This document shows, piece after piece, positions 29,451 through 42,092 of a DNA stretch of 64,000 nt. Origin of the DNA: a virus (lineage: Duplodnaviria > Caudoviricetes). The position numbers were made by a program, and so were the translations under genes. The notes below the pieces were generated by a model that worked only from the letters and a program-made list of their open reading frames with translations, was not told the DNA's origin and ran no database searches. Each line of letters opens with the position of its first letter. Position 1 is the stretch's first letter. Location of the stretch: positions 1 through 64,000 of the IMG/VR virus record IMGVR_UViG_3300021411_000005; one strand, 5' to 3'.

Positions 29451-30028
29451 CAGCAGTCCCCGTAATCCACGGACCCCTGCATGGACACAGCGGCCGGGTC
29501 CTGGAGCCAGGCGGAGTAGGACAGACCGCTGTCCGCCAGAAACTTCTTCAGCCGCCACTCCAGCGCCAGGTCCACACCCGCCGGTTCGTGCACGGTGTGG
29601 AACTCCCCCTCACCGCACCGGCACAGGCCGTGCAGCCGGTCGGCGCCGCTCCAGCCGTGGCGGTAGGCCGGAGCCGGGGGCATGGCGGCCACTCCGCGGC
29701 GGATCTCCATCTCCGCCAGGAGCAGCGCGACGGCAGCCGTCTGGACCAGCTCTTCCAGCCGGTCGCGGCCGGGAGCCGCGGTGAAGGCTTCGTAGACCTC
29801 CTCCAGGAGCACGGCGTCCCCGGTCCGGGTTCCGGTCTCGATGGCCGCGTCGTTGTACGCCTTGAACATCGCAGCCCAGACACCGTAGGACCGGCCGGTC
29901 AGGACGATCTCCTGCTCCGCGGTGCCGGTCAGCGGGTACTGCTGGACGCCGAACTTGTCGTCCTGGGCCCGGCGCTCCCGCGCGACGGCGGCCAGGAGCT
30001 TCATCACGATTACCTTGCTCTGGTCCAT
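29450..30028 (-). CDS. possible MazG-like all-alpha NTP pyrophosphohydrolase
   Basis: ERRAQDDKFG...LLEEVYEA...LEELVQTAAV acidic helix pattern. Confidence 0.5.
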   Translation of the reverse strand: MDQSKVIVMKLLAAVARERRAQDDKFGVQQYPLTGTAEQEIVLTGRSYGVWAAMFKAYNDAAIETGTRTGDAVLLEEVYEAFTAAPGRDRLEELVQTAAVALLLAEMEIRRGVAAMPPAPAYRHGWSGADRLHGLCRCGEGEFHTVHEPAGVDLALEWRLKKFLADSGLSYSAWLQDPAAVSMQGSVDYGDC

Positions 30029-30034
30029 GATCTG

Positions 30035-30439
30035 TCAGACCTTCCTCTTCAGGACGTTGTGGACATACCACCGGCCGGACCGGTGCCGGACGGGAACGCG
30101 CTCCCCGTCGGTCCGACCGCAGTCGGCACAGACCTGGAGTTCGTCCCTCCAGGCCGGATTGCGCTTCCAGCCGCAGTGCTTGCACCGCCACACCGTGCAC
30201 AGGGCGCATGCGGCTCCGTGGCGCCGGGCGGGCCTGGGGGTCCTGCGGACGTTGGCCGGGCCGGTGAACCCGGCCGCGGAGCGGAACCGGATCCGCAGCT
30301 CCTCCAGTGTGGTGGCGCAGCGGTCGCACATCGGGTGGCTGTAGGACACCTGGTCGGGGTCCATGGTCCACGCCCGGCAGCGCAGGCACCGGGGCCCGCG
30401 CGCAGCGACGGCGGCCAGGACGGCGGGGAAGTTGCTCAC
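30035..30439 (-). CDS. Cys-rich hypothetical protein with several CxxC pairs
   Basis: CLRC, CDRC, CALC, CKHC, CADC. Confidence 0.6.
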   Translation of the reverse strand: MSNFPAVLAAVAARGPRCLRCRAWTMDPDQVSYSHPMCDRCATTLEELRIRFRSAAGFTGPANVRRTPRPARRHGAACALCTVWRCKHCGWKRNPAWRDELQVCADCGRTDGERVPVRHRSGRWYVHNVLKRKV

Positions 30440-30861
30440 TCCTCCACATCCCAGGTGACCATTTTCGGAAGGCTCCAGCACGGGTTCTTTCCGGCGTGCG
30501 CGGCCTGGACCGACCAGTCCTTGAACACCCGGGGACCGGCGGGGCCGCTCTCCGTGGTGACCTCCCGGCGGTCCGGGTGGATGTCGATCTCCAGGAAGAA
30601 GATCCCGGCCTTCAGCATCGACACGAAGTAGGCGACCGGCTCCCGGTGGCGGTACAGCTCCCCGGCCACCACCAGGTGGCTGCCGACGATTCCGGCGCTG
30701 TCCATGAAGCCCAGGACCAGGCCGTGGCCGGGACCGGCAGCGGGCGCCAGGACCGGCGCCCTGCCGCGGTACAGGATCTTCTCCGCGGGAGTGTCCAGGA
30801 CCCGCCGGTCGGCGGTCGGGCTGTACAGCTCCGCCACGGCGGCCAGGAAGCGGGTGGTCAC
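30436..30861 (-). CDS. hypothetical protein (141 aa)
   Basis: GTG 30861 coupled to the upstream TGA. Confidence 0.55.
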   Translation of the reverse strand: MTTRFLAAVAELYSPTADRRVLDTPAEKILYRGRAPVLAPAAGPGHGLVLGFMDSAGIVGSHLVVAGELYRHREPVAYFVSMLKAGIFFLEIDIHPDRREVTTESGPAGPRVFKDWSVQAAHAGKNPCWSLPKMVTWDVEE

Positions 30862-31061
30862 GGTTTCACCTGCCGGTACCGCTCGGCAATGCCCCAGAAG
30901 GCTCCGGTCTTCAGCTCCAGCGCGTCGGCCAGGCCGTAGACCGCGATGATCGCGCTGGTGATCTTCTCCGCGTCGTACCAGTGCGGCGCGGTGGTGGTGC
31001 CGTTCAGGCGGAGCTTCACCGACGCCAGGACTTCGCTCCGGTTGTCCAGGGCCTTCAGCAC
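30858..31061 (-). CDS. hypothetical protein (67 aa)
   Basis: GTG 31061 with GGAGG. Confidence 0.55.
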   Translation of the reverse strand: MLKALDNRSEVLASVKLRLNGTTTAPHWYDAEKITSAIIAVYGLADALELKTGAFWGIAERYRQVKP

Positions 31062-31447
31062 GGCTCCTCCGTCCGGCGCAGCGACCAGGTGTGCCCGTAC
31101 ATCGGGTGGTGCCAGTGGCCTCCCCCGGCGGTGAGCACCGGGGATCCGGTGGCCTCTCCGCCGCAGCCGCACAGGGCGTAGGCGTAGACGGAGGAGAGGC
31201 AGCACACGGTGGCCGGGCGGGACGGCTGCCCGAAGGACGGGTACAGCGTGATCTCCGTGCCGGGCTCCGGGTGGCGGTACTCCGCGGCCAGGATCTGGAA
31301 GTCCTCCCGGTTGACCGCGTCGGGGTGCCGGGCGCCGTACGTCTCCAGGTAGGAGCTGGCGACGGCCGACAGGTTGTACTGGCCGTCCAGCTCCAGCACC
31401 CGGTTCCGCACCAGTTCCCGGACCTGCCGTTCACTGAAGGATGTCAT
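31055..31447 (-). CDS. hypothetical protein (130 aa), first gene of the leftward arm
   Basis: RBS CAGGAAAGAGGAACCG after the promoter at 31477..31505. Confidence 0.7.
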   Translation of the reverse strand: MTSFSERQVRELVRNRVLELDGQYNLSAVASSYLETYGARHPDAVNREDFQILAAEYRHPEPGTEITLYPSFGQPSRPATVCCLSSVYAYALCGCGGEATGSPVLTAGGGHWHHPMYGHTWSLRRTEEPC

Positions 31448-31476
31448 CGGTTCCTCTTTCCTGTATCAGTAGGGCC

Positions 31477-31534
31477 ACCGTACGGGCACTGCCAGATGCT
31501 GTCAATCGCTGCCACTCGATGCTATGGTCCCGGC
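31477..31534. promoter_or_regulatory. divergent promoter pair at the strand switch
   Basis: Minus strand: TTGACA-17-TACGGT. Plus strand: TATGGT 6 nt before ATG 31535 with no RBS (leaderless). Confidence 0.75.
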
Positions 31535-31723
31535 ATGAATGACACTCTGATCACCCGGAGGGAAGCGGCCGACAGGGCATCTGTCGGCCTGCGGACCGTG
31601 GACCGGTGGCTGGCCGAAGGACGGCTGACCCGGCACAAGGACGGTCTGGGCCGTGTGACGATCAGTCCCCTGGAGCTGGACGAACTGACGACCCCCAGGC
31701 CCGTCAGTGCCACCGGCCGGTAG
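31535..31723 (+). CDS. MerR/Xis-like (HTH_17) DNA-binding protein
   Basis: LITRREAADRASVGLRTVDRWLAEGRL...GRVTISPLELDE. Confidence 0.8.
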   Translation: MNDTLITRREAADRASVGLRTVDRWLAEGRLTRHKDGLGRVTISPLELDELTTPRPVSATGR

Positions 31724-31745
31724 ACCTGCGAGGAACGAGGAAACC

Positions 31746-32219
31746 ATGGCTGCGCGCATCAAGGCCATTGAGACCCAGTACGCGGGGTGCCGGTTCCGGT
31801 CCCGCCTGGAGGCCCGCTGGGCCGTGTTCTGGGACACCCTGGAGTGGCCCTGGGAGTACGAGCCGCAGGGGTTCGCCCTGCCGTCGGGCAACTACCTGCC
31901 GGACTTCCGGGTCCACGTCCCGGACAGCTCGAACGGGCCCGTGTGGTTCGAGGTGAAGCCGCCCGGCGTGCCGGACGACCCGCGGTGGCCGGAGCTGGCC
32001 GCCATGACGGACGCAATGATCATCGTGGCCAAGGGCATGCACCGGTCGGGGGATTCGTGCAGGAGCGCGCACACCGCTGACGCGTACAGCGGGACGGCGG
32101 TCGGCAGGGACCTCAAGCTGTGGATGCACAGCCCTGCGGCGGCCTGGGACGCGGCGTCCGGCGCCCGGTTCGAGCACGGGGAATCGCCGGTCACCCGGCG
32201 CGGCCGGAGGAAGCGGTGA
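31746..32219 (+). CDS. PD-(D/E)XK endonuclease-like protein
   Basis: FRSRLEARWA..WEYEP.GF...YLPDF...WFEVK. Confidence 0.75.
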   Translation: MAARIKAIETQYAGCRFRSRLEARWAVFWDTLEWPWEYEPQGFALPSGNYLPDFRVHVPDSSNGPVWFEVKPPGVPDDPRWPELAAMTDAMIIVAKGMHRSGDSCRSAHTADAYSGTAVGRDLKLWMHSPAAAWDAASGARFEHGESPVTRRGRRKR

Positions 32220-35200
32220 CGGCCGCCGCGGTGACGGAGGTCTCCCCCGTCCATGCGGAGGAACTGGCATCGAGCTGCATCGGGGCGGACCACATCGCAG
32301 CGCGCGGCTACCGCACGCTGTACGGCAGCGACGACGACCGGGCGGAACTGAAGACCCTGCGGATCCCGCGGTTCATGTGGCGCCACGACACGGCGTTCCC
32401 CGGGCTGCTCATCCCGGAGTACCGGGTGACCGGGGAGCTGATCGGCTACCAGTGGAAGCCCGCGGTCCCGCAGCGGAACTCCGACGGGAAGCCGGTGAAG
32501 TACGCCTCCCAGTCGGGGACGCCGAACCACCTGGACATCCCGCCGCTGGTCAGCGACAAGGTAAGGGATCCCAGCAATCCGCTGTGGATCACCGAAGGCG
32601 TGAAGAAGGCGGACTGCCTGGCCACGCTGGAGAAGGCCGTCATCACACTGACCGGCGTCTACAACTGGCGGAGCAAGCTGGGCACGCTGGGGGACTGGGA
32701 GGACATCCCGATCCAGGGGCGGACCGTCGTGGTCTGTTTCGACTCCGACGCGCGCAGCAAGCGGCCGGTCATGCTGGCCATGCGCCGTCTGGGGCTCTGG
32801 CTCCAGTCCAAGGGCGCCGCGGAGGTCCGGTACCTGATCGTCCCCTCCGAGGTTCCGCAGGGGGAGGACCGGGCCGCCGTTGAGGTCAAGGGCGTGGACG
32901 ACTACTTCCACGCCGGGGGAACCCTGGAGGATCTGGGGGGCCACGCGGCGCGGGAGCTGCCGGTGGACGGCGCACGGGACGCGGCCTTCTCGGACGCGGT
33001 CCTGGCCGACACGGTGTGCAGTGAGGAGCTGGAGGGCCAGTACAAGTGGTCGTCCGGCCTGGGCTGGATGGTCTGGACGGGGAAGTTCTGGAAGAGCGCG
33101 GAAGACGTCACGGTGACCGAAGCCGTACGGCTGTGGGTCCTGTCCCAGTTCCACCGGGTGATCGACCTCCAGGGCGCGGACCCGAACCGGGACATGCGCT
33201 CCCAGATCGATGGCTGGCGCAGTGCGCTGGCCGCGTCCAAGCTCAGCAGCCTGGTCAAGCTCAGCCGGGGAATCCTGGAGTGCGACGCATCGGATTTCGA
33301 CTCCGATGCGGACGTCCTGAACTGCCCGAACGGCATTCTGGACCTGCGCACGGGCGTGCTGACGACGCACGACCCGGACCGGCTGATGACGAAGATGGCC
33401 GGGGTGGACTACGTCAAGGGCGCGCAGCACCCGGACTGGGACACTGCGCTGACCGCCCTGCCCGCCGATGTCCTGGAGTGGTTCCAGCTCCGCATCGGAC
33501 AGGCCCTGACCGGCCACCTGACCCCGGACGACCTGGCCGTCATCTGCCAGGGAGGCGGGGAGAACGGCAAGTCCACGGTCTTCAACGCGCTGACCACGGC
33601 CGCGGGGAAGTACCACATCACCGTGGCGGACCGGGCGATGCTGGGCAACGCCAGCGACAACCACCCCACGGAGATGACCGATTTCCTGGGTGCACGGTTC
33701 GCCATTCTGGAGGAGACCCCGGAGTCCCGGCGGCTGGACACCAACCGGCTGAAGAAGCTGGTCGGCACCCGGGAGATCACCGCCCGGAAGATCCGGCAGA
33801 ACGACATCACGTTCACCACGACACACAGCCTCTTCGTGAACACGAACTTCCGCCCGGTGGTGGATGAGACCGACCACGGGACCTGGAGGCGCCTGGCGCT
33901 GCTCATCTTCCCGTACACGTACCGGAAGACCCCGGCGGAGGTTCTGGGGCCCCAGGACCGCCTGGGGGACGGCGCGCTGCGCCAGCGGATAGAGACCCAG
34001 CCGGTCATGGAGGCCGCACTGGCCTGGGCCGTCCAGGGCGCTCAGCGCTGGTACGACATGGAGCGGATCATGCCGGACATGCCGGACCGGGTGCGGGGGG
34101 ACACCCTGGGGTGGCGGAAGGAGAGTGACCCGGTGATGACCTTCGTGGACGAAGAGATCGTGTTCGATCCGGACGCTTTCATCATCGGCTCAGAACTACG
34201 GAGCGTGTTCAACCACAAGATCACGGAGAAGGGCGGCCGGGAGTGGGGCGACAAGACGTTCAGCGCCCGTTTCGGGGGCCATGACCTGGTGGTTCAGCAC
34301 GGTGTGGAGTACAAGGTCACCAAAAACGGAACGGGCCTCTCCACCCGCCTGCGGAACCCCTCTTCGGCGTCCACCGTACGAGCCTGGCGAGGCGTCCGAT
34401 TCTCCGATCCGGACGCCGAAACAGGGGGTGGGGCTGAGAACGACCCATTTGGAAAATCCCCGGTCGGAGGGGGTAACCAAGATCAGGTTACGGCAGTTAC
34501 ATCTGCGCCGATAAGCACAAATCCTGGATCTCGCATAGAGGTTAACCGCCAACGTGTAACTGCTGTAACCGATCTTGAAATCACCCTTCCCAGCGATCAA
34601 GGAAATGAGGAAGAATTGGAGAACTCGATCATGCTTCCCGATGATCCTTTCGGTGAGGCGGAGGACCCCCCGGCCGCTGTGTGGGAGGGCCCGCTGCCGG
34701 ACCGGGTGACATTCGACCTGGAGACCGCTTCGGCCGACGAAATGTTTACTTACGGTGACGGTTTCGTCCGGCTGGCGGGCTTCGCGGCCGACGACGGAGA
34801 ACCGCGCACCGGGGTGGATATCGGGCAGCTTGTCTGGCTGCTGGAGCGCGTCCCGTCGGCCAGCCACAACGGCATGCAGTTCGACGGTCCGGCGCTGGCC
34901 TACCACCACGGGATGGACTGGGAGAAGTTCAGCGCGCTGGCGGAGGACACGGAGATCAAGGCCCGGCTGGCCGACCCCCCGCGGTCCAAGGAAACCGGCG
35001 GGTCGGACGACAAGTACGACCTGGACCACACCGCGGAGAAGCTGGGGGTCCGGGGCAAGACCGACAGCGCGAAGCGGCTGAAGAACAAGTTCGGCGGCTG
35101 GGACCGGATCCCGCAGGACGACCCGGAGTACCACGCCTACCTGTCGGGTGACGTGGAGGCCGGGCGCGCGGTGGACCGCCTGCTCCCCGTCACGGAGTAC

Positions 35201-36421
35201 GGGCGCCGGGAGCACCGGCTGGCCGGGCTGGCCGGGCGGATGACGCTGAACGGGTGCCGGGTGGACGTCCCGCTGCTGAAGGAGCGGATCCGGGAGGGGC
35301 AGGAGAAGAAGGCTTCCGCCCTGGAGGCGCTCAGCGGTACCTACAGCCTCCCGCTGGGCCGTGAGGTGATGCGGGGCCGCGGGAAGGCGAAGGCGCCCGC
35401 CTGGGAGCCGTTCAGCTCCCCGCTGGCCACTACGGAGGGCGGCGCCTGGCTGGCCGACCTCTGGAAGCAGTTCGGCGTGGTCCGTCCCCCGCGGACTCCG
35501 AACGGCAACCTGTCCACCGCCGCGGAGCGGCTGAAGGAGGTGGCGGAGAACAGGCACTGCCCGCCGGAGCTGAAGACCGCGCTGGAGCTGATGGGGATCG
35601 TCACCACCACCAGGACCGTCTACCAGACCGTGGAGAAGTACCTGACCGTGGAGGGGCGCGTCCATCCGACGGTCAGCATGCGGCAGGCGTCCGGCCGGTG
35701 GTCCGTCACCAAGCCGGGTCTGACCGTCTTCGGCAAGCGGGACGGCCGCCACATCGAACGGGACGTGATCGTCCCGGAGGAAGGCCACCTCCTGGTGACC
35801 TGTGACCTGGCCCAGGTGGACATGCGCGCCGTGGCCGCGCACTGCCAGGACGAGAACTACATGCAGTTGTTCGAGCCCGGCCGGGACGCGCACGCGGAGA
35901 TTGCGGCGCTGATCGGGGTGTCCCGGCAGGACGCCAAGCCGCTGGGCCACGGCTACAACTACGGCATGGGCCGTGCCCGGATGAAGCGGGACGGCCACGA
36001 TCCGGAACTGGTGGACGCGTTTTTCGACGGCATGGAGAGCCAGTTCCCGGTCAAGATGGCGTGGACCAAGGACGTCATTGCCCGGGGCACCGCCGGGGAG
36101 CTGCTGGACAACGGGTTCGGCCGGATGATGCGCTGCGACCCGCGGTCGGCCTACACCGTGGCGCCCGCGCTGATGGGCCAGGGCGGCGCCCGGGACATCA
36201 CCTGTGAAGTGCTGCTCCGGCTGATCGACCGGCACCCGGAGTACCAGCCCTACCTGCGCGCCTACGTCCACGATGAGTTCGTCTTCTCCGTACCGGAGGA
36301 CCGGGCGGAGGAGATCGGGGCGGAGATCAAGGACGCGTTCACCTGGGAGTGGAAGGGTGTGCCGATCCTGGCCGACCTGTCCGGCCCGGGTCCGTCCTGG
36401 GGTGCGGTGAGCGCGAAGTGA
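32216..36421 (+). CDS. primase (DUF3854/Toprim-like) - D5/SF3 helicase - family A DNA polymerase fusion, 1401 aa
   Basis: ITEGVKKAD, CFDSD, KGVDDY; LNCPNG, GGGENGKST, ILEE, VNTN; ExoI FDLET, ExoII HNGMQFD, ExoIII YLSGDV; motif A DLAQVDMR, motif B KPLGHGYNYG, motif C VHDE. No internal stop. Confidence 0.92.
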   Translation: MTAAAVTEVSPVHAEELASSCIGADHIAARGYRTLYGSDDDRAELKTLRIPRFMWRHDTAFPGLLIPEYRVTGELIGYQWKPAVPQRNSDGKPVKYASQSGTPNHLDIPPLVSDKVRDPSNPLWITEGVKKADCLATLEKAVITLTGVYNWRSKLGTLGDWEDIPIQGRTVVVCFDSDARSKRPVMLAMRRLGLWLQSKGAAEVRYLIVPSEVPQGEDRAAVEVKGVDDYFHAGGTLEDLGGHAARELPVDGARDAAFSDAVLADTVCSEELEGQYKWSSGLGWMVWTGKFWKSAEDVTVTEAVRLWVLSQFHRVIDLQGADPNRDMRSQIDGWRSALAASKLSSLVKLSRGILECDASDFDSDADVLNCPNGILDLRTGVLTTHDPDRLMTKMAGVDYVKGAQHPDWDTALTALPADVLEWFQLRIGQALTGHLTPDDLAVICQGGGENGKSTVFNALTTAAGKYHITVADRAMLGNASDNHPTEMTDFLGARFAILEETPESRRLDTNRLKKLVGTREITARKIRQNDITFTTTHSLFVNTNFRPVVDETDHGTWRRLALLIFPYTYRKTPAEVLGPQDRLGDGALRQRIETQPVMEAALAWAVQGAQRWYDMERIMPDMPDRVRGDTLGWRKESDPVMTFVDEEIVFDPDAFIIGSELRSVFNHKITEKGGREWGDKTFSARFGGHDLVVQHGVEYKVTKNGTGLSTRLRNPSSASTVRAWRGVRFSDPDAETGGGAENDPFGKSPVGGGNQDQVTAVTSAPISTNPGSRIEVNRQRVTAVTDLEITLPSDQGNEEELENSIMLPDDPFGEAEDPPAAVWEGPLPDRVTFDLETASADEMFTYGDGFVRLAGFAADDGEPRTGVDIGQLVWLLERVPSASHNGMQFDGPALAYHHGMDWEKFSALAEDTEIKARLADPPRSKETGGSDDKYDLDHTAEKLGVRGKTDSAKRLKNKFGGWDRIPQDDPEYHAYLSGDVEAGRAVDRLLPVTEYGRREHRLAGLAGRMTLNGCRVDVPLLKERIREGQEKKASALEALSGTYSLPLGREVMRGRGKAKAPAWEPFSSPLATTEGGAWLADLWKQFGVVRPPRTPNGNLSTAAERLKEVAENRHCPPELKTALELMGIVTTTRTVYQTVEKYLTVEGRVHPTVSMRQASGRWSVTKPGLTVFGKRDGRHIERDVIVPEEGHLLVTCDLAQVDMRAVAAHCQDENYMQLFEPGRDAHAEIAALIGVSRQDAKPLGHGYNYGMGRARMKRDGHDPELVDAFFDGMESQFPVKMAWTKDVIARGTAGELLDNGFGRMMRCDPRSAYTVAPALMGQGGARDITCEVLLRLIDRHPEYQPYLRAYVHDEFVFSVPEDRAEEIGAEIKDAFTWEWKGVPILADLSGPGPSWGAVSAK
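34487..34569. other. candidate replication origin inside the helicase-polymerase linker
   Basis: GTTACGGCAGTTAC (34487) and GTAACTGCTGTAAC (34556) form a 13/14 inverted repeat around an AT-enriched spacer. Confidence 0.55.
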
Positions 36422-37130
36422 TCGAGAGAGAGAGAGAGAGAGCGGTGTCCGGCCCCGGATCCTGGATCTTTTCGGAGGCGGAGGCGGGGCCGCCATGGGG
36501 TACCACATGGCTGGATGGGATGTGACCGGCGTGGACCTGGCGCCGCAGCCCAACTACCCGTTCCGGTTCGTCCAGGCCGATGCGCTGACCTTCCCACTGG
36601 ACGGCTACGACGCTGTTCACCTGTCCCCGCCCTGCCAGGGGTACGGGCGGCTGCGGCACCGGTCGGGCGGGAAGGTCTATCCGCGGCTGATTGCTCCGAT
36701 GCGGGAACGCCTCTTCCGGGAGGCGCCGGACATGCCGTACGTGATGGAGAACGTGGAGGACGCGCTGCCCCATCTGATCAGTCCGGTGATGCTCTGCGGG
36801 TCGTCGTTCGGCCTTCGGGTGCGTCGACACCGGTATTTCGAAACGAACTGGAAGCTGGTCCCGGTCGGCTGCGATCACGGCTGGCAGGACAGGCACAAGC
36901 CCTACCGGCTGTACGTCGGCAAGGCCCGGACCAACGGGCTCGGGTATCGGGAGAGCGGGATCCAGCAAGTGTTCGGCGGTAACCACAACGTGGGCGGCCG
37001 GTCGCACTTTTTCAAGTCGGTGGCCATGGGGATTGACTGGATGACTGAAACCGAGCTGAACGAGTCGATCCCTCCGGCGTACACCGCTCTGGTGGGAACA
37101 CAACTGATGGAGCTGGTGAGTGCGAAGTGA
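36418..37130 (+). pseudogene. C5-cytosine DNA methyltransferase (short phage type), frameshifted at its 5' end as sequenced
   Basis: Motif I RILDLFGGGGG (36456..36488) lies upstream of the first in-frame ATG (36495), and an in-frame TGA sits at 36408. Downstream motifs SPPCQ, ENV and RRHR are intact. Confidence 0.8.
36424..36442 (+). repeat. (GA)9G simple sequence repeat at the 5' end of the methyltransferase
   Basis: GAGAGAGAGAGAGAGAGAG; the only such tract noticed in the window. Confidence 0.95.
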
Positions 37131-37372
37131 CCGGCTTGCTGGGCCTGGCCGTACGGGTGATGCGGCACGGCATGCTGCCGACACGGGAGCACCTGTCCTG
37201 GGCCCTGGAGGCGGAGGAGTACGTCATCCGGGCGCGGGCGCTGGGGTACAGCCGGGAGGAGGCTGTGGTCCTCCTGCACGAAGCCGTCCAGCGCGGCGGG
37301 TACACGGATCTGGCGCTGCGGCTGATGAAGACCGGCTGGAGGCCGGTGGACCAGGGAGTGAGGAAGACATGA
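37127..37372 (+). CDS. hypothetical protein (81 aa)
   Basis: GTGA coupling. Confidence 0.65.
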   Translation: MTGLLGLAVRVMRHGMLPTREHLSWALEAEEYVIRARALGYSREEAVVLLHEAVQRGGYTDLALRLMKTGWRPVDQGVRKT

Positions 37373-37788
37373 GTGATCAGTCCGAATACCCGCCCGGGGT
37401 GGAAGACCGGGACGGCTACGACGCGATGACGTACCTGGAGGGCGGTACGGAGGAGGCCATGGCCGCAGCCGCGCGGATGGACCTGCGGGCAGCGGCCCGT
37501 GCCGTGGACCCGTCGGGCCTGGTGGGGCGGACGGTCAGGATGAACGCCTTCTGCTCCCGGGAGACGAAGCGGGGTGCGGAGCTGGATCTGTACGCGCAGT
37601 ACGGCGCGGCGCTGGGGTTCAGCCGGGAGCGGGCTCTGGAGATCCTGGAGGAGACCGGGAGCCCGGAGCGGGCCAGGGCGAAGATGTGCGACGGGAGCAT
37701 CCGGGCCGTGAACGCCCTGGTGGCACTGGCTCCGTCGGCTGTCCCGCTGCTGCTCCGGGCCGTCCGGAGGTGGAACCGTGGACGCTGA
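37369..37788 (+). CDS. hypothetical protein (139 aa)
   Basis: ATG 37369 with GAGGAAG. Confidence 0.6.
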   Translation: MSDQSEYPPGVEDRDGYDAMTYLEGGTEEAMAAAARMDLRAAARAVDPSGLVGRTVRMNAFCSRETKRGAELDLYAQYGAALGFSRERALEILEETGSPERARAKMCDGSIRAVNALVALAPSAVPLLLRAVRRWNRGR

Positions 37789-37993
37789 GCAGGCCGATCG
37801 GATAGCCCGGACCAGCGTCCACCCCGCGGCCGTCATCCTGGGGTGCCCCGTGGTCCTGATGGCTGCGGGCTGCCCGGCGGGGGAGGCCGACCGGCTGACC
37901 GAGCAACTGGCCGGTGTGGACCACCGGCCCTACTCGCTGGCCCAGGTTGTCCTGGCCATCGCACTGGTGATGAAGGAAGGCACGGAGTCATGA
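37778..37993 (+). CDS. hypothetical protein (71 aa)
   Basis: GGAGG RBS; ORF track. Confidence 0.6.
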   Translation: MDAEQADRIARTSVHPAAVILGCPVVLMAAGCPAGEADRLTEQLAGVDHRPYSLAQVVLAIALVMKEGTES

Positions 37994-38697
37994 GGAAGTT
38001 CTGGAAGCGGGAAGGCTACTCGGCACGCTGGAACCGGGCGGTGCAGGAGGCCGATGTGGGAGGCGCCATGCGGCGCGGCATGGAGCAGGCCGACCGGGTG
38101 ATGAAGGCGTTCGAGCGGGGCCGGATGTACGAGCGGAAGCAGTGGGAGGCGGCCGTCCGGCTGGGTGCCGGTGCAGCCCGGGACTTCACCCGGCAGATGG
38201 AGGAGCTGCGCCGGATGCCCGGGACCGGTGAGGAGGATCTGGCCCGGGTGAAGGGGCGCGTCCTGGACATGAGCCAGGGCCTGGATGCCGTGAGGAACAG
38301 TGGCCTGACGGCGGAGGAGGCCGACCGGTCGCTCCGGGCCTGGGCCGGTGGCGGAGCCAGCGCAGCATCTCTGGACCGGCAGCGCTGCCCGGAGTGCGGC
38401 TGCACGGACCACAAGTCCTTCGGGCCCTGCTCCTCCACCGGGTGCTCCTGCTCCGGCCTGCCGTTCGGCGTGCTGTCCGAAGAAGCGGAGGCCGGGAGCC
38501 TGGACGGTCCGTGCCGACTGCCGCTGATGTGCTACCACCCGGACCAGACGGCGCGGTGGCGGGTGTCGCTCGATCCGGCCCGGCCCGGGGCGTCGTTCAG
38601 CATCCATGAACGGCGGTGCCCGGACTGCGCTGCGGAGACTGCGGCCTGCGGCCGGGAAGCCGCTCCGCTGCCTCCCTGGATGGTGCCGGGCCAGTGA
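37990..38697 (+). CDS. hypothetical protein with C-terminal Cys-rich motifs (235 aa)
   Basis: ATG 37990; CPECGCTDH...C...CSC; CPDC. Confidence 0.6.
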   Translation: MRKFWKREGYSARWNRAVQEADVGGAMRRGMEQADRVMKAFERGRMYERKQWEAAVRLGAGAARDFTRQMEELRRMPGTGEEDLARVKGRVLDMSQGLDAVRNSGLTAEEADRSLRAWAGGGASAASLDRQRCPECGCTDHKSFGPCSSTGCSCSGLPFGVLSEEAEAGSLDGPCRLPLMCYHPDQTARWRVSLDPARPGASFSIHERRCPDCAAETAACGREAAPLPPWMVPGQ

Positions 38698-38724
38698 TCA
38701 TTACCACGCGGTCATAATCAGATC

Positions 38725-39294
38725 ATGACGTTGGTGATCATCCCGCGGTGCCCTACGCTCCAGCCCAACGGCCGGATGTGCATGCAGCCTGCCGGGAGCC
38801 AGACGGGACACAAGGGCTGGGGCCGGTGCTTCTGGCACCGCGGCCGTACGGCACCGGTAGAGGAAACGTGGAGGAACGCCATGGAGCTGGCCGAACAGCT
38901 CGACATGAACCCGCTGGAAGCGCTGCTCCACTCCGTCAGGGTGGCCGCCGCGCACGCCGCCTGGTCGGACACGCATCTCCGGGAGGCGGTCAGGGCGCAG
39001 GGCGGGGAGCCGGGCGACGAACCGGGGTCCGCGGTGAAGGCGTGGCTGATCGAGTCGCGGAAGGAGCGCACGCTGTTCGCCAAGATCTCCAAGGCAGCGG
39101 TGGACGCAGGGGTGGCCGCCGCACTGGTGGCCAGGGTGGACCTGGAGTCCATGGCCGCAGCCGAAGCCATCCTGGCCGCGGTGGACTCCCTGGAGCTGGC
39201 ACCGGACCAGCGCCAGCGCGCACTGGAGGCGGGGCAGGCGCGGCTCCTGGCCATCGCGGGTCCGGAGGGCTCCGATATGGGGGACTTCGGCTGA
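38725..39294 (+). CDS. possible terminase small subunit-like protein, leaderless start
   Basis: C..C.QPAG..TGH.G.GRC.WH N-terminal motif followed by helices; CATAAT 6 nt upstream of the ATG. Confidence 0.45.
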   Translation: MTLVIIPRCPTLQPNGRMCMQPAGSQTGHKGWGRCFWHRGRTAPVEETWRNAMELAEQLDMNPLEALLHSVRVAAAHAAWSDTHLREAVRAQGGEPGDEPGSAVKAWLIESRKERTLFAKISKAAVDAGVAAALVARVDLESMAAAEAILAAVDSLELAPDQRQRALEAGQARLLAIAGPEGSDMGDFG

Positions 39295-39416
39295 CCCTGT
39301 CAAGGGGCTGCGCCCCATCAATTGCCCTTCCGTGACCTGCCGGTTCCTGTTATCCGGACGGTTCCGGGAGGGCAATTGCGTGCACCGCCCCTTAGACTCC
39401 CCGGACCGACCGATAA

Positions 39417-40061
<645 letters not shown>

Positions 40062-40091
40062 TACGCTGCCGGTACTGCCTGGCCGCAGACG

Positions 40092-40132
40092 AAGGACCGC
40101 AGGTGCCCGTGTGGGGCGCGCCTGCGGTCCTT
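40092..40132. terminator. bidirectional hairpin between convergent genes
   Basis: AAGGACCGCAGG / CCTGCGGTCCTT. Confidence 0.7.
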
Positions 40133-40146
40133 TGCTGTACAGGGGG

Positions 40147-40659
40147 TCAGATCATTCCGCCGGTCCGCTGCTGCGCCGGAGCCACACCCAGGCGGGCCAA
40201 TGCCTCCCGCGCCCGGTCGCGGACCGTACGGGCCGCGCGCAGCTCCGCGGGGACCGGTTCGTCGGTGTTGGCGTCGATGCAGTAGACCGCGTACTCCACC
40301 AGCATCTCCAGTACCGCCGTGCTGGCGGTGACGGTCAGGTAGTAGCTGCGCCCGGCTGTCCGCTGGACGGATGCCTCCATGGCCAGCCGCAGGGCCAGGC
40401 ACTCGCTGTCGCTGTCGTCCTGGCCCTGCGCCACGCCGGTACCGGTGAACCAGTCGGCGAAGGCGCCGGGGACCGTGATCTCCGTGACCGGCTCCGGCGC
40501 GGCGGTGACCGTGGCCTCCTGCCGGGCGTCGAATGCGGCCAGAACCTCCTTCATCTCCGCGTCACCGGCTTCGCGCTGCGCGGTCCGGTTCGCTTCGGTG
40601 GGGTTGGCGGCGTACGCGGCTTCGGCGGTCCGGCGGGCGGCGGTGGAGGGGAAGTCCAT
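40147..40659 (-). CDS. hypothetical early-type protein (170 aa), opposite to its neighbours
   Basis: ATG 40659 after RBS AGGAAGAAGGAAATC and the ACAGCAGCAC leader. Confidence 0.75.
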   Translation of the reverse strand: MDFPSTAARRTAEAAYAANPTEANRTAQREAGDAEMKEVLAAFDARQEATVTAAPEPVTEITVPGAFADWFTGTGVAQGQDDSDSECLALRLAMEASVQRTAGRSYYLTVTASTAVLEMLVEYAVYCIDANTDEPVPAELRAARTVRDRAREALARLGVAPAQQRTGGMI

Positions 40660-40696
40660 GATTTCCTTCTTCCTGGTCTGTGCTGCTGTAGGACCC

Positions 40697-40725
40697 ATAC
40701 TCCTCCGCCGATGGGTGTATGTCAA
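40697..40725 (-). promoter_or_regulatory. early promoter
   Basis: TTGACA-17-GAGTAT; TGTCA-AGTCA-TGACA palindrome over the -35. Confidence 0.8.
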
Positions 40726-40907
40726 GTCATGACACACTCTTTGACCAGGCGTTGGAGGTGGACATGGTCCACCTGTACTGTCCTTCCGGGCACAAGCGCG
40801 GGGTGCACCCGGAGCAGGGGCGGGGACCGGCCGGGCGCAGAGGTACTCCGCCGGGCGCTGGCGCAGGGGCGGCCCCGGTGCAAAGGCAGAGGTACCCCGG
40901 ACACGGC

Positions 40908-40935
40908 GAAGCCCCCGGTTGGCGCCGGGGGCTTC
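40908..40935 (+). terminator. GC-rich hairpin
   Basis: GAAGCCCCCGG / CCGGGGGCTTC. Confidence 0.55.
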
Positions 40936-41028
40936 TGGGTGCTCACCATCCATGCCCGTGAGGAGCAGCGCCAGACTACTCCGGATCGGGCAGTATCGTA
41001 AGATCAGTCCGCCGAAAGGAATCAGCCA

Positions 41029-41880
41029 ATGCCGGATGAAATGGTCACCACCTACGAACACGTCTACACCCCGACGGACCGGCGGCTGGGCCGCCACGTC
41101 CGGCACGACAGCCGGTCCCTGCGTCACGCTGTCGGCGTGCTCCCCCGCAGCGCCATCAAGGCGGTGAGCTGGACCCGGCGCATTCCGATCCTGGACCAGG
41201 GCCAGATCGGGGACTGCGTCCCGAACGCGCTGACCGGCATCCTGGGCACCGACAGCGAGCAGCGCACCGGCCTGGCCCAGGTCACCGTGAAGGCCGATCC
41301 GGGCGGTGTCTTCCAGGGCGGGCCGTACCCGCTGAACGAGTCGTTTGCCGTGCGGCTCTACAGCCTGATCACCGCACTGGACAGCTATCCCGGCCAGTAC
41401 CCGCCGGACGACACCGGCAGCGACGCGCTGGGGGCCATGGCTGCGGCCCAGGCGCTCGGGCTGGCCGGTGAATACCAGCACGCGTTCAGCTACACCGCGG
41501 CGCAGTCGGCCGTCCAGAAGGGCCCGCTGATGTGGGGCACGGAGTGGCTGGAGTCGATGTTCGACACGGACCGCAACGGCTTCCTGGTGGTGGACCGGAA
41601 GAGCGGCGTGGCGGGCGGCCACGAACTGGTGCTGTCCGGGTACGACCCGGACACGGACGTGTGGCAGGCGGACAACTCCTGGGGCACATCGTGGGGTGCC
41701 GACGGCCGGGCTTCCGTCACCGGGGTGAACCTGCGCTGGCTGCTTACCCAGGAAGGGGACATCACGCTGCCGACCTGGATCACGTCCCCGGTCACCCCGC
41801 CCGGCCCGGCGCCGTTCACCGACGCGGAGTTCTGGGAGTACGCACAGCAGTGGGCAGCGGGCAAGGGGTTCACGTCGTGA
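41029..41880 (+). CDS. papain-family (C1) cysteine peptidase
   Basis: ILDQGQIGDCVPNA (Gln, Cys), GGHELVLSGYD (His), DNSWG (Asn). Confidence 0.88.
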   Translation: MPDEMVTTYEHVYTPTDRRLGRHVRHDSRSLRHAVGVLPRSAIKAVSWTRRIPILDQGQIGDCVPNALTGILGTDSEQRTGLAQVTVKADPGGVFQGGPYPLNESFAVRLYSLITALDSYPGQYPPDDTGSDALGAMAAAQALGLAGEYQHAFSYTAAQSAVQKGPLMWGTEWLESMFDTDRNGFLVVDRKSGVAGGHELVLSGYDPDTDVWQADNSWGTSWGADGRASVTGVNLRWLLTQEGDITLPTWITSPVTPPGPAPFTDAEFWEYAQQWAAGKGFTS

Positions 41881-42092
41881 GCTGGCTGCGCCGTACGAGG
41901 GAGCTTCCGGCCGGGCACTTCGTCAGCTACGCCGCATGCCTGGTCCGGCAGGGCGGGGACGGGGTGATCGAGCTTCACGGCTACAGCATGGAGGACGTGA
42001 TCAAGTATCTGGCCTTCCTCCAGAACGGACTCCAGGACGACGTCCCGGACGCCGATTCTCTGGACCTCCTCCGCAACCGGCCGCACCCGTGA
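41877..42092 (+). CDS. hypothetical protein (71 aa)
   Basis: GTGA coupling. Confidence 0.5.
   Translation: MSWLRRTRELPAGHFVSYAACLVRQGGDGVIELHGYSMEDVIKYLAFLQNGLQDDVPDADSLDLLRNRPHP

Follow-up and report, generated by a model that had tools for sequence, protein, structure and literature searches.

A (GA)n tract probably sets the reading frame of a C5-cytosine methyltransferase gene in a tailed phage

Frame states of the methylase gene in the window and its close relatives

Can a tailed phage switch the methylation of its own DNA on and off by gaining and losing units of a simple repeat? The question is raised by a DNA methyltransferase gene (hereafter, methylase gene) in IMG/VR virus record IMGVR_UViG_3300021411_000005 (Duplodnaviria; Caudoviricetes), of which positions 1 to 64,000 make up the stretch of DNA analysed here, called the window. 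The methylase frame is closed on its 5′ side by a TGA at position 36408, after which it reads ARSDRERERESGVRPRILDLFGGGGGAAM and continues without a break (...DRERERESGVRPRILDLFGGGGGAAM...) up to motif I, the loop that binds S-adenosylmethionine (SAM). The first ATG, GTG or TTG in this frame is the ATG at 36495, beyond motif I. The sole plausible start, a GTG at 36418 that overlaps the stop codon of the preceding polymerase gene (GTGA), is followed by ATC and then by a perfect (GA)9G tract, and is thereby out of frame with the methylase; its own frame translates as MIERERERAVSGPGSW... and ends after 35 residues. In a unit-by-unit simulation, loss of one GA or gain of two produced MIERERESGVRPRILDLF... 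and an open reading frame (ORF) of 236 or 238 residues, respectively. Most of this anatomy had been noted in a preliminary description of the stretch, every point of which on the layout was borne out by direct reading and by the simulation. From the evidence of sequence comparison, we consider it likely that the repeat tract sets the frame of the methylase and that the gene is a contingency locus whose present copy is OFF. If so, the phage probably switches the methylation of its DNA at random between the two states.

The preliminary description had proposed a comparison with relatives, and this comparison revealed both frame states at the same tract position. Four related phages share the gene order of the window, with the methylase gene directly after the same polymerase gene and a GA/AG tract at the same place. 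In L012 (also sighted as L093 and L094; 82% identity to the window), an ATG just past the polymerase stop leads into (AG)11 and the gene is ON, reading MSRERERERVVRPRLLDLF. In L095 (77% identity), the ATG overlaps the polymerase stop (ATGA), the tract is again (AG)11, and the gene is also ON, reading MIKRERERESRPRLLDLF. L002 (84% identity), an independent contig from another metagenome, has (AG)17 preceded by a GTG and an ATG, both out of frame; like the window, with its (GA)9.5, it is OFF; L002 has no start codon after the tract. The GTG of the window aligns with the ATG of L095 and with the GTG/ATG starts of L012 and L002. When the tracts were altered in silico, removal of one unit or addition of two restored a full-length enzyme in both OFF alleles (window and L002), and every single-unit change destroyed the enzyme in both ON alleles (L012 and L095). 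The window, which is OFF, is the sister of L012, which is ON, with support of 99/95 in the tree. A DNA pattern scan of IMG/VR for the junction found nothing beyond L002.

The fourth relative, L113 (74% identity), carries an interrupted tract, AGAGGGAGAGAGAGAGGGAG, and is locked ON from its own ATG, which lies after a hairpin and an AAGGAG ribosome-binding site. A 55-nt insert occurs between its polymerase stop and methylase start (L113:2948-3000), holding the GC-rich hairpin (GGTGGCGCG...CGCGCCACC) and the AAGGAG, behind which the polymerase-end sequence GCGAAGTGA is duplicated; the GA tract itself is broken by two A-to-G changes. L113 looks like a stabilised, uncoupled ON version of the gene.

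Between the two OFF alleles, the ratio of non-synonymous to synonymous substitution rates (dN/dS) in the gene body was 0.155 at a dS of 0.76, and over all pairs it ranged from 0.10 to 0.28 (Nei-Gojobori). With a ratio this low at such a depth of divergence, purifying selection must have acted on the enzyme in both OFF lineages through almost the whole time since they parted. Over the same lineages, which are near synonymous saturation, the tract has remained perfect yet varies in length (19, 22, 22 and 34 nt), and point interruptions within the GA clade occur in L113 only. The persistence of a perfect tract at changing lengths leads us to think that whole units come and go and that substitution is not what shapes it, as is typical of hypermutable tracts.

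Repeats across the methylase family and the identity of the enzyme

Repeats of other kinds were found at the same 5′ position elsewhere in the family. L096, which is 73% identical and lies in another genomic neighbourhood, has a GTG followed by (GACC)7.5 and is OFF; removal of one unit restores the enzyme. In L098/L099, ATGG(AC)12 is in frame (ON) and reads MDTHTHTHTRPK, and in L114 an (AC)5.5 tract is likewise in frame (ON). Each of these repeat bearers adjoins repeat-free relatives in the tree, and the AC groups and the GA/GACC groups fall in different, well-supported clades, which implies that repeats were gained at the methylase 5′ end independently at least three times. Taken with the natural ON and OFF alleles and the selection on OFF gene bodies, these repeat types support the proposal of the preliminary description that a repeat sets the frame of this methyltransferase and that the copy in the window is OFF. 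In approximately 240 loci of distant homologues (36-54% identity; from metagenomes, IMG/VR and prokaryote genomes), no comparable tract was present in the 120 nt before motif I, and nearly all of them have an in-frame start 1-5 codons before R-LLDLF.

Several further features were observed at the 5′ ends of homologues. L242 (IMGVR_UViG_3300046837_000247) comes nearest to such a tract, with a short in-frame (AG)5 approximately 30 nt before motif I, in an N-terminal extension reading MDEMTATEREARPRLLDLF; this may be an early stage of a similar tract in an unrelated branch. In L096 (2926-2934), an ATG in the methylase frame runs into a TGA (ATG ACG TGA), and the GTG overlaps this mini-ORF. Among homologues from low-GC sources, a T5 run within the DLF codons breaks the frame in L069 (40-100), and A7-A8 runs lie in or before the N-terminal extensions of L063 (1000-1067), L154, L259 and L145; these runs may be errors or homopolymer switches.

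Gene callers were found to pick a conserved methionine after motif I (MGYH...) in P0002-P0004, P0009-P0011, P0013, P0027, P0032, P0035 and P0036, even where an ATG, GTG or TTG is present in frame upstream, and database proteins of the family are consequently often approximately 15-25 residues short and without the SAM-binding loop. The use of these truncated "MGY..." calls as a proxy for the OFF state was considered and rejected; among nine that were checked, P0011, P0013, P0027, P0032, P0035 and P0036 simply had an in-frame ATG, TTG or GTG that had been missed, and no repeat.

The protein encoded in the window belongs to PHROG 363, "DNA methyltransferase" (E 3e-27), and a profile of 36 homologues matched the N-terminal half of M.HaeIII (PDB 1dct) with an E of 8e-8, bringing motifs I (FxGxGG), IV and VI into alignment. 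The motifs occur in the order of C5-methyltransferases (DLFGGGGG, PPCQ, ENV), and residues C60, Q61, E98 and V100 are invariant in the 36 homologues. Modelled with AlphaFold2 from the R of RILDLF onward (224 residues), the protein gave a pLDDT of 95.2 and a pTM of 0.90; with this model, Foldseek retrieved at a probability of 1.0 only C5-cytosine methyltransferases (the catalytic domains of DNMT3A/B, 3g7u of prophage CP-933R, and M.HaeIII), at a TM of approximately 0.6 and with the match spanning the entire protein. A search with Pfam PF00145 gave no hit for the window protein at an E of 0.01, and its relatives P0005 and P0006 scored 20.4 and 29.9 bits against a cut-off of 22. By its motifs and the confident fold match, the gene product is predicted to be a compact C5-cytosine DNA methyltransferase. 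A product begun at ATG 36495 would be without motif I and, from the known role of this motif, should be inactive.

The features of the locus are listed in Table 1. The polymerase gene of the window matches phage DNA polymerase I genes (tblastn), and its homologues in L095, L106 and L113 have the Pfam domains DUF3854, D5_N, DUF5906 and DNA_pol_A. Since the GTG of the next gene overlaps the methylase stop, the methylase gene is apparently a link in a chain of translationally coupled genes. No endonuclease partner was found, the neighbours being the polymerase gene and small ORFs without a match to a nuclease family, and a search of the 92%-complete record for integrases (PF00589 or PF07508) came back empty. 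The gene is therefore taken to be a presumptive orphan among methyltransferases, sitting in the replication module of what is probably a lytic phage. A phasevarion in the strict sense, in which a host regulon is switched, is unlikely, as the lack of an integrase in this record also makes stable residence in a host doubtful.

Table 1. Features of the polymerase-methylase junction and the methylase gene (positions in the window)
Feature	Position	Strand	Basis and remarks
Primase-helicase-family A polymerase gene, 1433 codons	32120..36421	+	ORF list; stop TGA 36419-36421; directly 5′ of methylase
TGA closing the methylase frame on its 5′ side	36408..36410	+	Read from sequence
GTG, putative start codon of methylase, overlapping the polymerase stop (GTGA)	36418..36420	+	Aligns with starts in relatives
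Predicted OFF-state product: 35-codon out-of-frame leader ORF, ending at TGA 36523-36525	36418..36525	+	Translation
(GA)9G simple sequence repeat, probably frame-setting; at present one unit too long	36424..36442	+	Between start codon and motif I
GGCCCCGG, with C4 run, coding for conserved RPR in the methylase frame	36451..36458	+	Identical in L002, L012 and L095
Body of predicted C5-cytosine DNA methyltransferase, intact, 224 codons from the R of RILDLF plus stop	36456..37130	+	Translation
Motif I (ILDLFGGGGG), SAM-binding loop	36459..36488	+	Translation and M.HaeIII alignment; lost if the start is ATG 36495
First in-frame ATG, 3′ of motif I	36495..36497	+	Start chosen by gene caller, giving a truncated 211-residue protein (P0002)
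Motif IV (PPCQ), catalytic cysteine	36627..36638	+	Invariant in 36 homologues; aligned to PPCQ of M.HaeIII
Motif VI (ENV)	36747..36755	+	Homologue alignment; M.HaeIII alignment
Next gene, 81 codons, GTG start overlapping methylase stop	37127..37372	+	No family match

The ends of the polymerase and methylase genes also share a 16-nt direct repeat, GGTGAG[C/T]GCGAAGTGA, at 36406-36421 and 37115-37130. Both proteins consequently end in VSAK, and the final GTGA of each gene supplies the start of the next. This end repeat was not found in the relatives L002, L012, L095 and L113; it resembles what a cassette insertion or a recombination event would leave behind.

With regard to cultured phages, the best methylase matches were less than 50% identical, and megablast of window positions 30000-42000 returned no hit. 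The closest cultured polymerase was that of Actinoplanes phage phiAsp2, with 41% identity. A scan of prokaryote genomes produced distant methylase homologues only (43-54% identity) and thus no assignment of a host.

Soundness of the tract and other explanations of the OFF frame

The (GA)9G tract cannot be put down to chance. No other dinucleotide repeat in the 75,908-base record (68% G+C) exceeds 10 nt, and a 15-nt GA pattern would be expected 0.01 times in shuffled sequence. As the record is a metagenome assembly of modest depth (12-18x), and repeats and homopolymers are prone to error, the true tract could be 8.5 units long, or a C could be missing from the C4 run of GGCCCCGG; the latter was the alternative raised in the preliminary description, in which a simple frameshift or sequencing error hides a start after the tract. 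Two runs of what is probably the source soil sample are represented by Logan assemblies (X1 and X2); a further Logan set, X3, contained short, low-depth fragments only. Positions 35400-37600 of the window were reproduced without difference or gap by these two independent assemblies (depths 12 and 18). With the two re-assemblies in exact agreement, neither the length of the tract nor the C4 run can be blamed on the assembler of the original record. In addition, the C4 run is conserved in L002, L012 and L095, and the ON alleles read it in frame, as CGG CCC CGG (RPR) before LLDLF; the RPR is widespread among homologues at this position. L002, an independent contig, is OFF in like manner and, for want of any start codon downstream of the tract, would gain nothing from an extra C. 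The missing-C explanation fails on these two grounds, and we regard a sequencing or assembly error of either kind as extremely unlikely.

An explanation that deserves more weight is non-adaptive decay, in which the GA tract is no more than a mutational hazard that has recently knocked out the methylase gene in the window and in L002, leaving it on the way to loss. Several findings weigh against a switch, and some of them are what decay would lead one to see. Two of the four perfect-tract alleles in the GA clade are OFF. Both source runs display one and the same 9.5-unit allele; contigs of the Logan type are consensus sequences, in which minority tract lengths are invisible. The phages that were sighted twice (L012/L093 and L098/L099) have identical tracts, although the two sightings in a pair may go back to a single data set or to related samples. 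The dN/dS values would also be compatible with a very recent, non-adaptive knock-out of each OFF lineage. The absence of variation at the level of reads is the weakest point of the case, and its sole hint of tract variation depends on assembler behaviour: over 2533 nt, L097 does not differ from L096 (100% identity), yet the contig opens precisely where the GACC tract does. Logan assemblies are built with 31-mers, and 30 repeat bases plus one unique base would just fill such a word, so a break at the tract start hints at a longer or mixed tract. Decay would further agree with the accessory nature of the methylase, which is absent or placed elsewhere in other relatives, and with the exchange of a perfect for an interrupted tract in the L113 lineage.

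On the other side, both OFF gene bodies are intact and bear the mark of selection described above, and the perfect tract has survived, at altered lengths, in four lineages that have diverged. That three different repeat types arose at one 5′ site on separate branches is hard to explain without selection for mutability, and one-unit changes revert the defect, so that even a knock-out would be mechanically reversible. The sister alleles with opposite frame states and the convergent repeat types are the strongest points in favour of a contingency locus. Taken as a whole, we think that decay is unlikely as the explanation of the OFF frames.

A third explanation is that the OFF allele makes a low, constitutive amount of enzyme by recoding, either through a −1 slip of the ribosome or through transcriptional slippage in the GA tract. 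A candidate site for the former is C_CCC in GGCCCCGG, where tRNA-Pro could move back by one base from CCC onto CCC, so that the product would read ...GP and then RILDLF. In the GA clade, the two OFF alleles share their relative frame and both have GGCCCCGG, and (AG)n constructs of a mod gene from Mycoplasma were leaky in E. coli when frameshifted (bioRxiv 10.64898/2026.04.01.715767). However, the site has no X XXY YYZ heptamer, and the 81 nt downstream of it fold no better than shuffled sequences (z +0.40 and +0.24). The conserved RPR codons account for GGCCCCGG, which stands unaltered in ON alleles, where no slip is called for, and the OFF allele of L096 would require a shift in the opposite direction. 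A programmed −1 frameshift at CCCC was accordingly rejected, for want of a heptamer and of downstream structure. Leakiness would, in any case, modulate a genetic ON/OFF switch and not replace one. Recoding in place of a switch is very unlikely in our judgment, and low-level leakiness of the OFF state is possible by analogy with the Mycoplasma constructs. In L012 (320-400), RNA 3′ of the tract folds more stably than shuffled sequences (z -2.7; 3/200 as stable), and that of the OFF alleles does not; the stability in L012 may be due to chance.

Translation might also begin without the GTG, either at a non-canonical codon (ATC 36459 or CTG 36462) or as a fusion with the polymerase by a +1 shift at AAG_TGA. 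Some homologues do start at the position of the former (P0029, MLGLF; P0016, MRLLDLF), and the methylase frame of the window is the polymerase frame +1, as the fusion would demand. A near-cognate start is not conserved, as L002 has CTT and CTC at these codons, and no Shine-Dalgarno sequence lies ahead of it; the ATC/CTG start was rejected on the evidence of L002. The fusion was rejected because the frame relation differs between the window and the ON alleles, whose methylase frame is the polymerase frame −1 and which have an ATG of their own. Initiation by any of these routes has hardly any credit with us.

Proposed switch, known systems and significance

We propose that methylase translation begins at GTG 36418 and is coupled to the end of polymerase translation, and that the (GA)n tract would code for a brief (Glu-Arg)n leader, dispensable to the enzyme, in front of the SAM-binding motif. 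As phage DNA is replicated, slippage of the strands would add or remove GA units and thereby move the enzyme body in and out of frame. In the majority allele seen here, with 9.5 units, ribosomes would make a 35-residue nonsense peptide (OFF), and genomes that had lost one unit or gained two would make the full enzyme, so that minority ON genomes would arise from an OFF majority and the reverse. The outcome would be a phage population in which methylating and non-methylating genomes are mixed, and the methylated genome is probably the phage's own. Actinobacteria are not known to have MutS and MutL, and their NucS repair pathway handles insertions and deletions poorly; slippage should therefore be favoured in such hosts. 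The rate and reversibility of switching, the methylation activity and its target, and the selective benefit all belong to the presumptive part of this scheme.

The benefit is probably one of hedging between hosts whose restriction is blocked by methylation and hosts that cut methylated DNA. The record (the window plus 11.9 kb) is conspicuously poor in certain 6-bp palindromes, with found/expected counts of 0/135 for GCCGGC, 0/56 for CAGCTG, 0/35 for GAGCTC, 0/16 for AGGCCT, 0/10 each for CTGCAG and CTCGAG, 0/8 for AGTACT, 1/17 for ATCGAT and 1/11 for GTCGAC. Several of these avoided palindromes are recognised by enzymes that were originally discovered in Streptomyces and Nocardia. Avoidance of this degree, at sites of this origin, suggests that the phage has been under heavy Type II restriction pressure and has an actinomycete host. 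Restriction directed specifically at methylated DNA has been documented for Streptomyces coelicolor and S. avermitilis in work cited in PMC4365076. More tentatively, and with slightly more doubt than belief, we suggest that actinobacterial phages have repeatedly and independently placed (GA)n, (GACC)n and (AC)n repeats at the first codons of one methyltransferase family, so that every burst would be mixed, as a selected hedge between Type II restriction, which is blocked by methylation, and methyl-specific restriction, which is common in Streptomyces-like hosts.

The nearest parallels among phages are the adenine runs in T2 agt and T4 rIIA, which are phage contingency loci; the runs in T2 agt hedge between TgvAB and McrA/BC (Gomez, Barrick and Waters, bioRxiv 10.1101/2025.10.21.683753). 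In both cases a slippage-prone repeat in a phage gene causes frameshifts, and agt is likewise a DNA-modification gene that trades one restriction sensitivity for another. The coliphage runs, however, are homopolymeric, 6-9 bases long and situated mid-gene, whereas the tracts described here are di- and tetranucleotide repeats of 19-34 nt at the extreme 5′ end of a predicted C5 methyltransferase gene of putative actinobacterial phages; moreover, the evidence for the former is experimental and that for the locus in the window comparative alone. As cited in the same preprint, polyG tracts occur in receptor-binding genes of Campylobacter Fletchervirus, and one has been noted in a methylase gene of phage BPP-1. 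These are also hypermutable tracts carried by phages, one of them in a methylase gene, but as cited there they are homopolymers.

Among bacterial systems, hpyAVIBM of Helicobacter pylori is a C5-cytosine methyltransferase gene switched by AG repeats (PMC3411764), and thus has the same enzyme class, the same repeat unit and a frame set by the AG count. It differs in being a gene of a chromosomal restriction-modification (R-M) locus that affects host expression; its 4-5 AG units lie inside the ORF and not at the start codon, and it is not phage-borne. In phasevarions, Type III mod or Type I hsd methyltransferases are switched, an example being MmyCI of Mycoplasma mycoides with (AG)12 (PMC3498834; PMC7383803). 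These have in common with the present locus that simple sequence repeats in the coding region turn a DNA methyltransferase ON and OFF, but they are N6-adenine enzymes of R-M systems that reprogram host transcription, in contrast to what appears to be an orphan C5 enzyme in a phage replication module. Streptomyces phage Faust gp6 and Gordonia phage Malisha gp85 (approximately 220 residues; PHROG 363) belong to the same family as the window protein, with 44-49% identity; no repeat tract turned up for them in database searches, in which their 5′ ends were not inspected individually. In the papers that they covered, literature searches yielded no description of a repeat-switched methyltransferase in actinophages.

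Switches of this kind are easily missed in databases, as truncated gene calls hide the upstream start and the tract in repeat-bearing alleles, and the convergent repeats offer a ready set for comparative tests. Should the proposed switching hold true, phage contingency loci would extend from the homopolymers of coliphages to long di- and tetranucleotide repeats in other phages. As a rule, phage methyltransferases are regarded as anti-restriction genes of constant effect; were this one to toggle, any one stock of the phage would be an epigenetic mixture, and the host range of soil actinophages, their escape from restriction and the defences that depend on methylation would have to be read differently.

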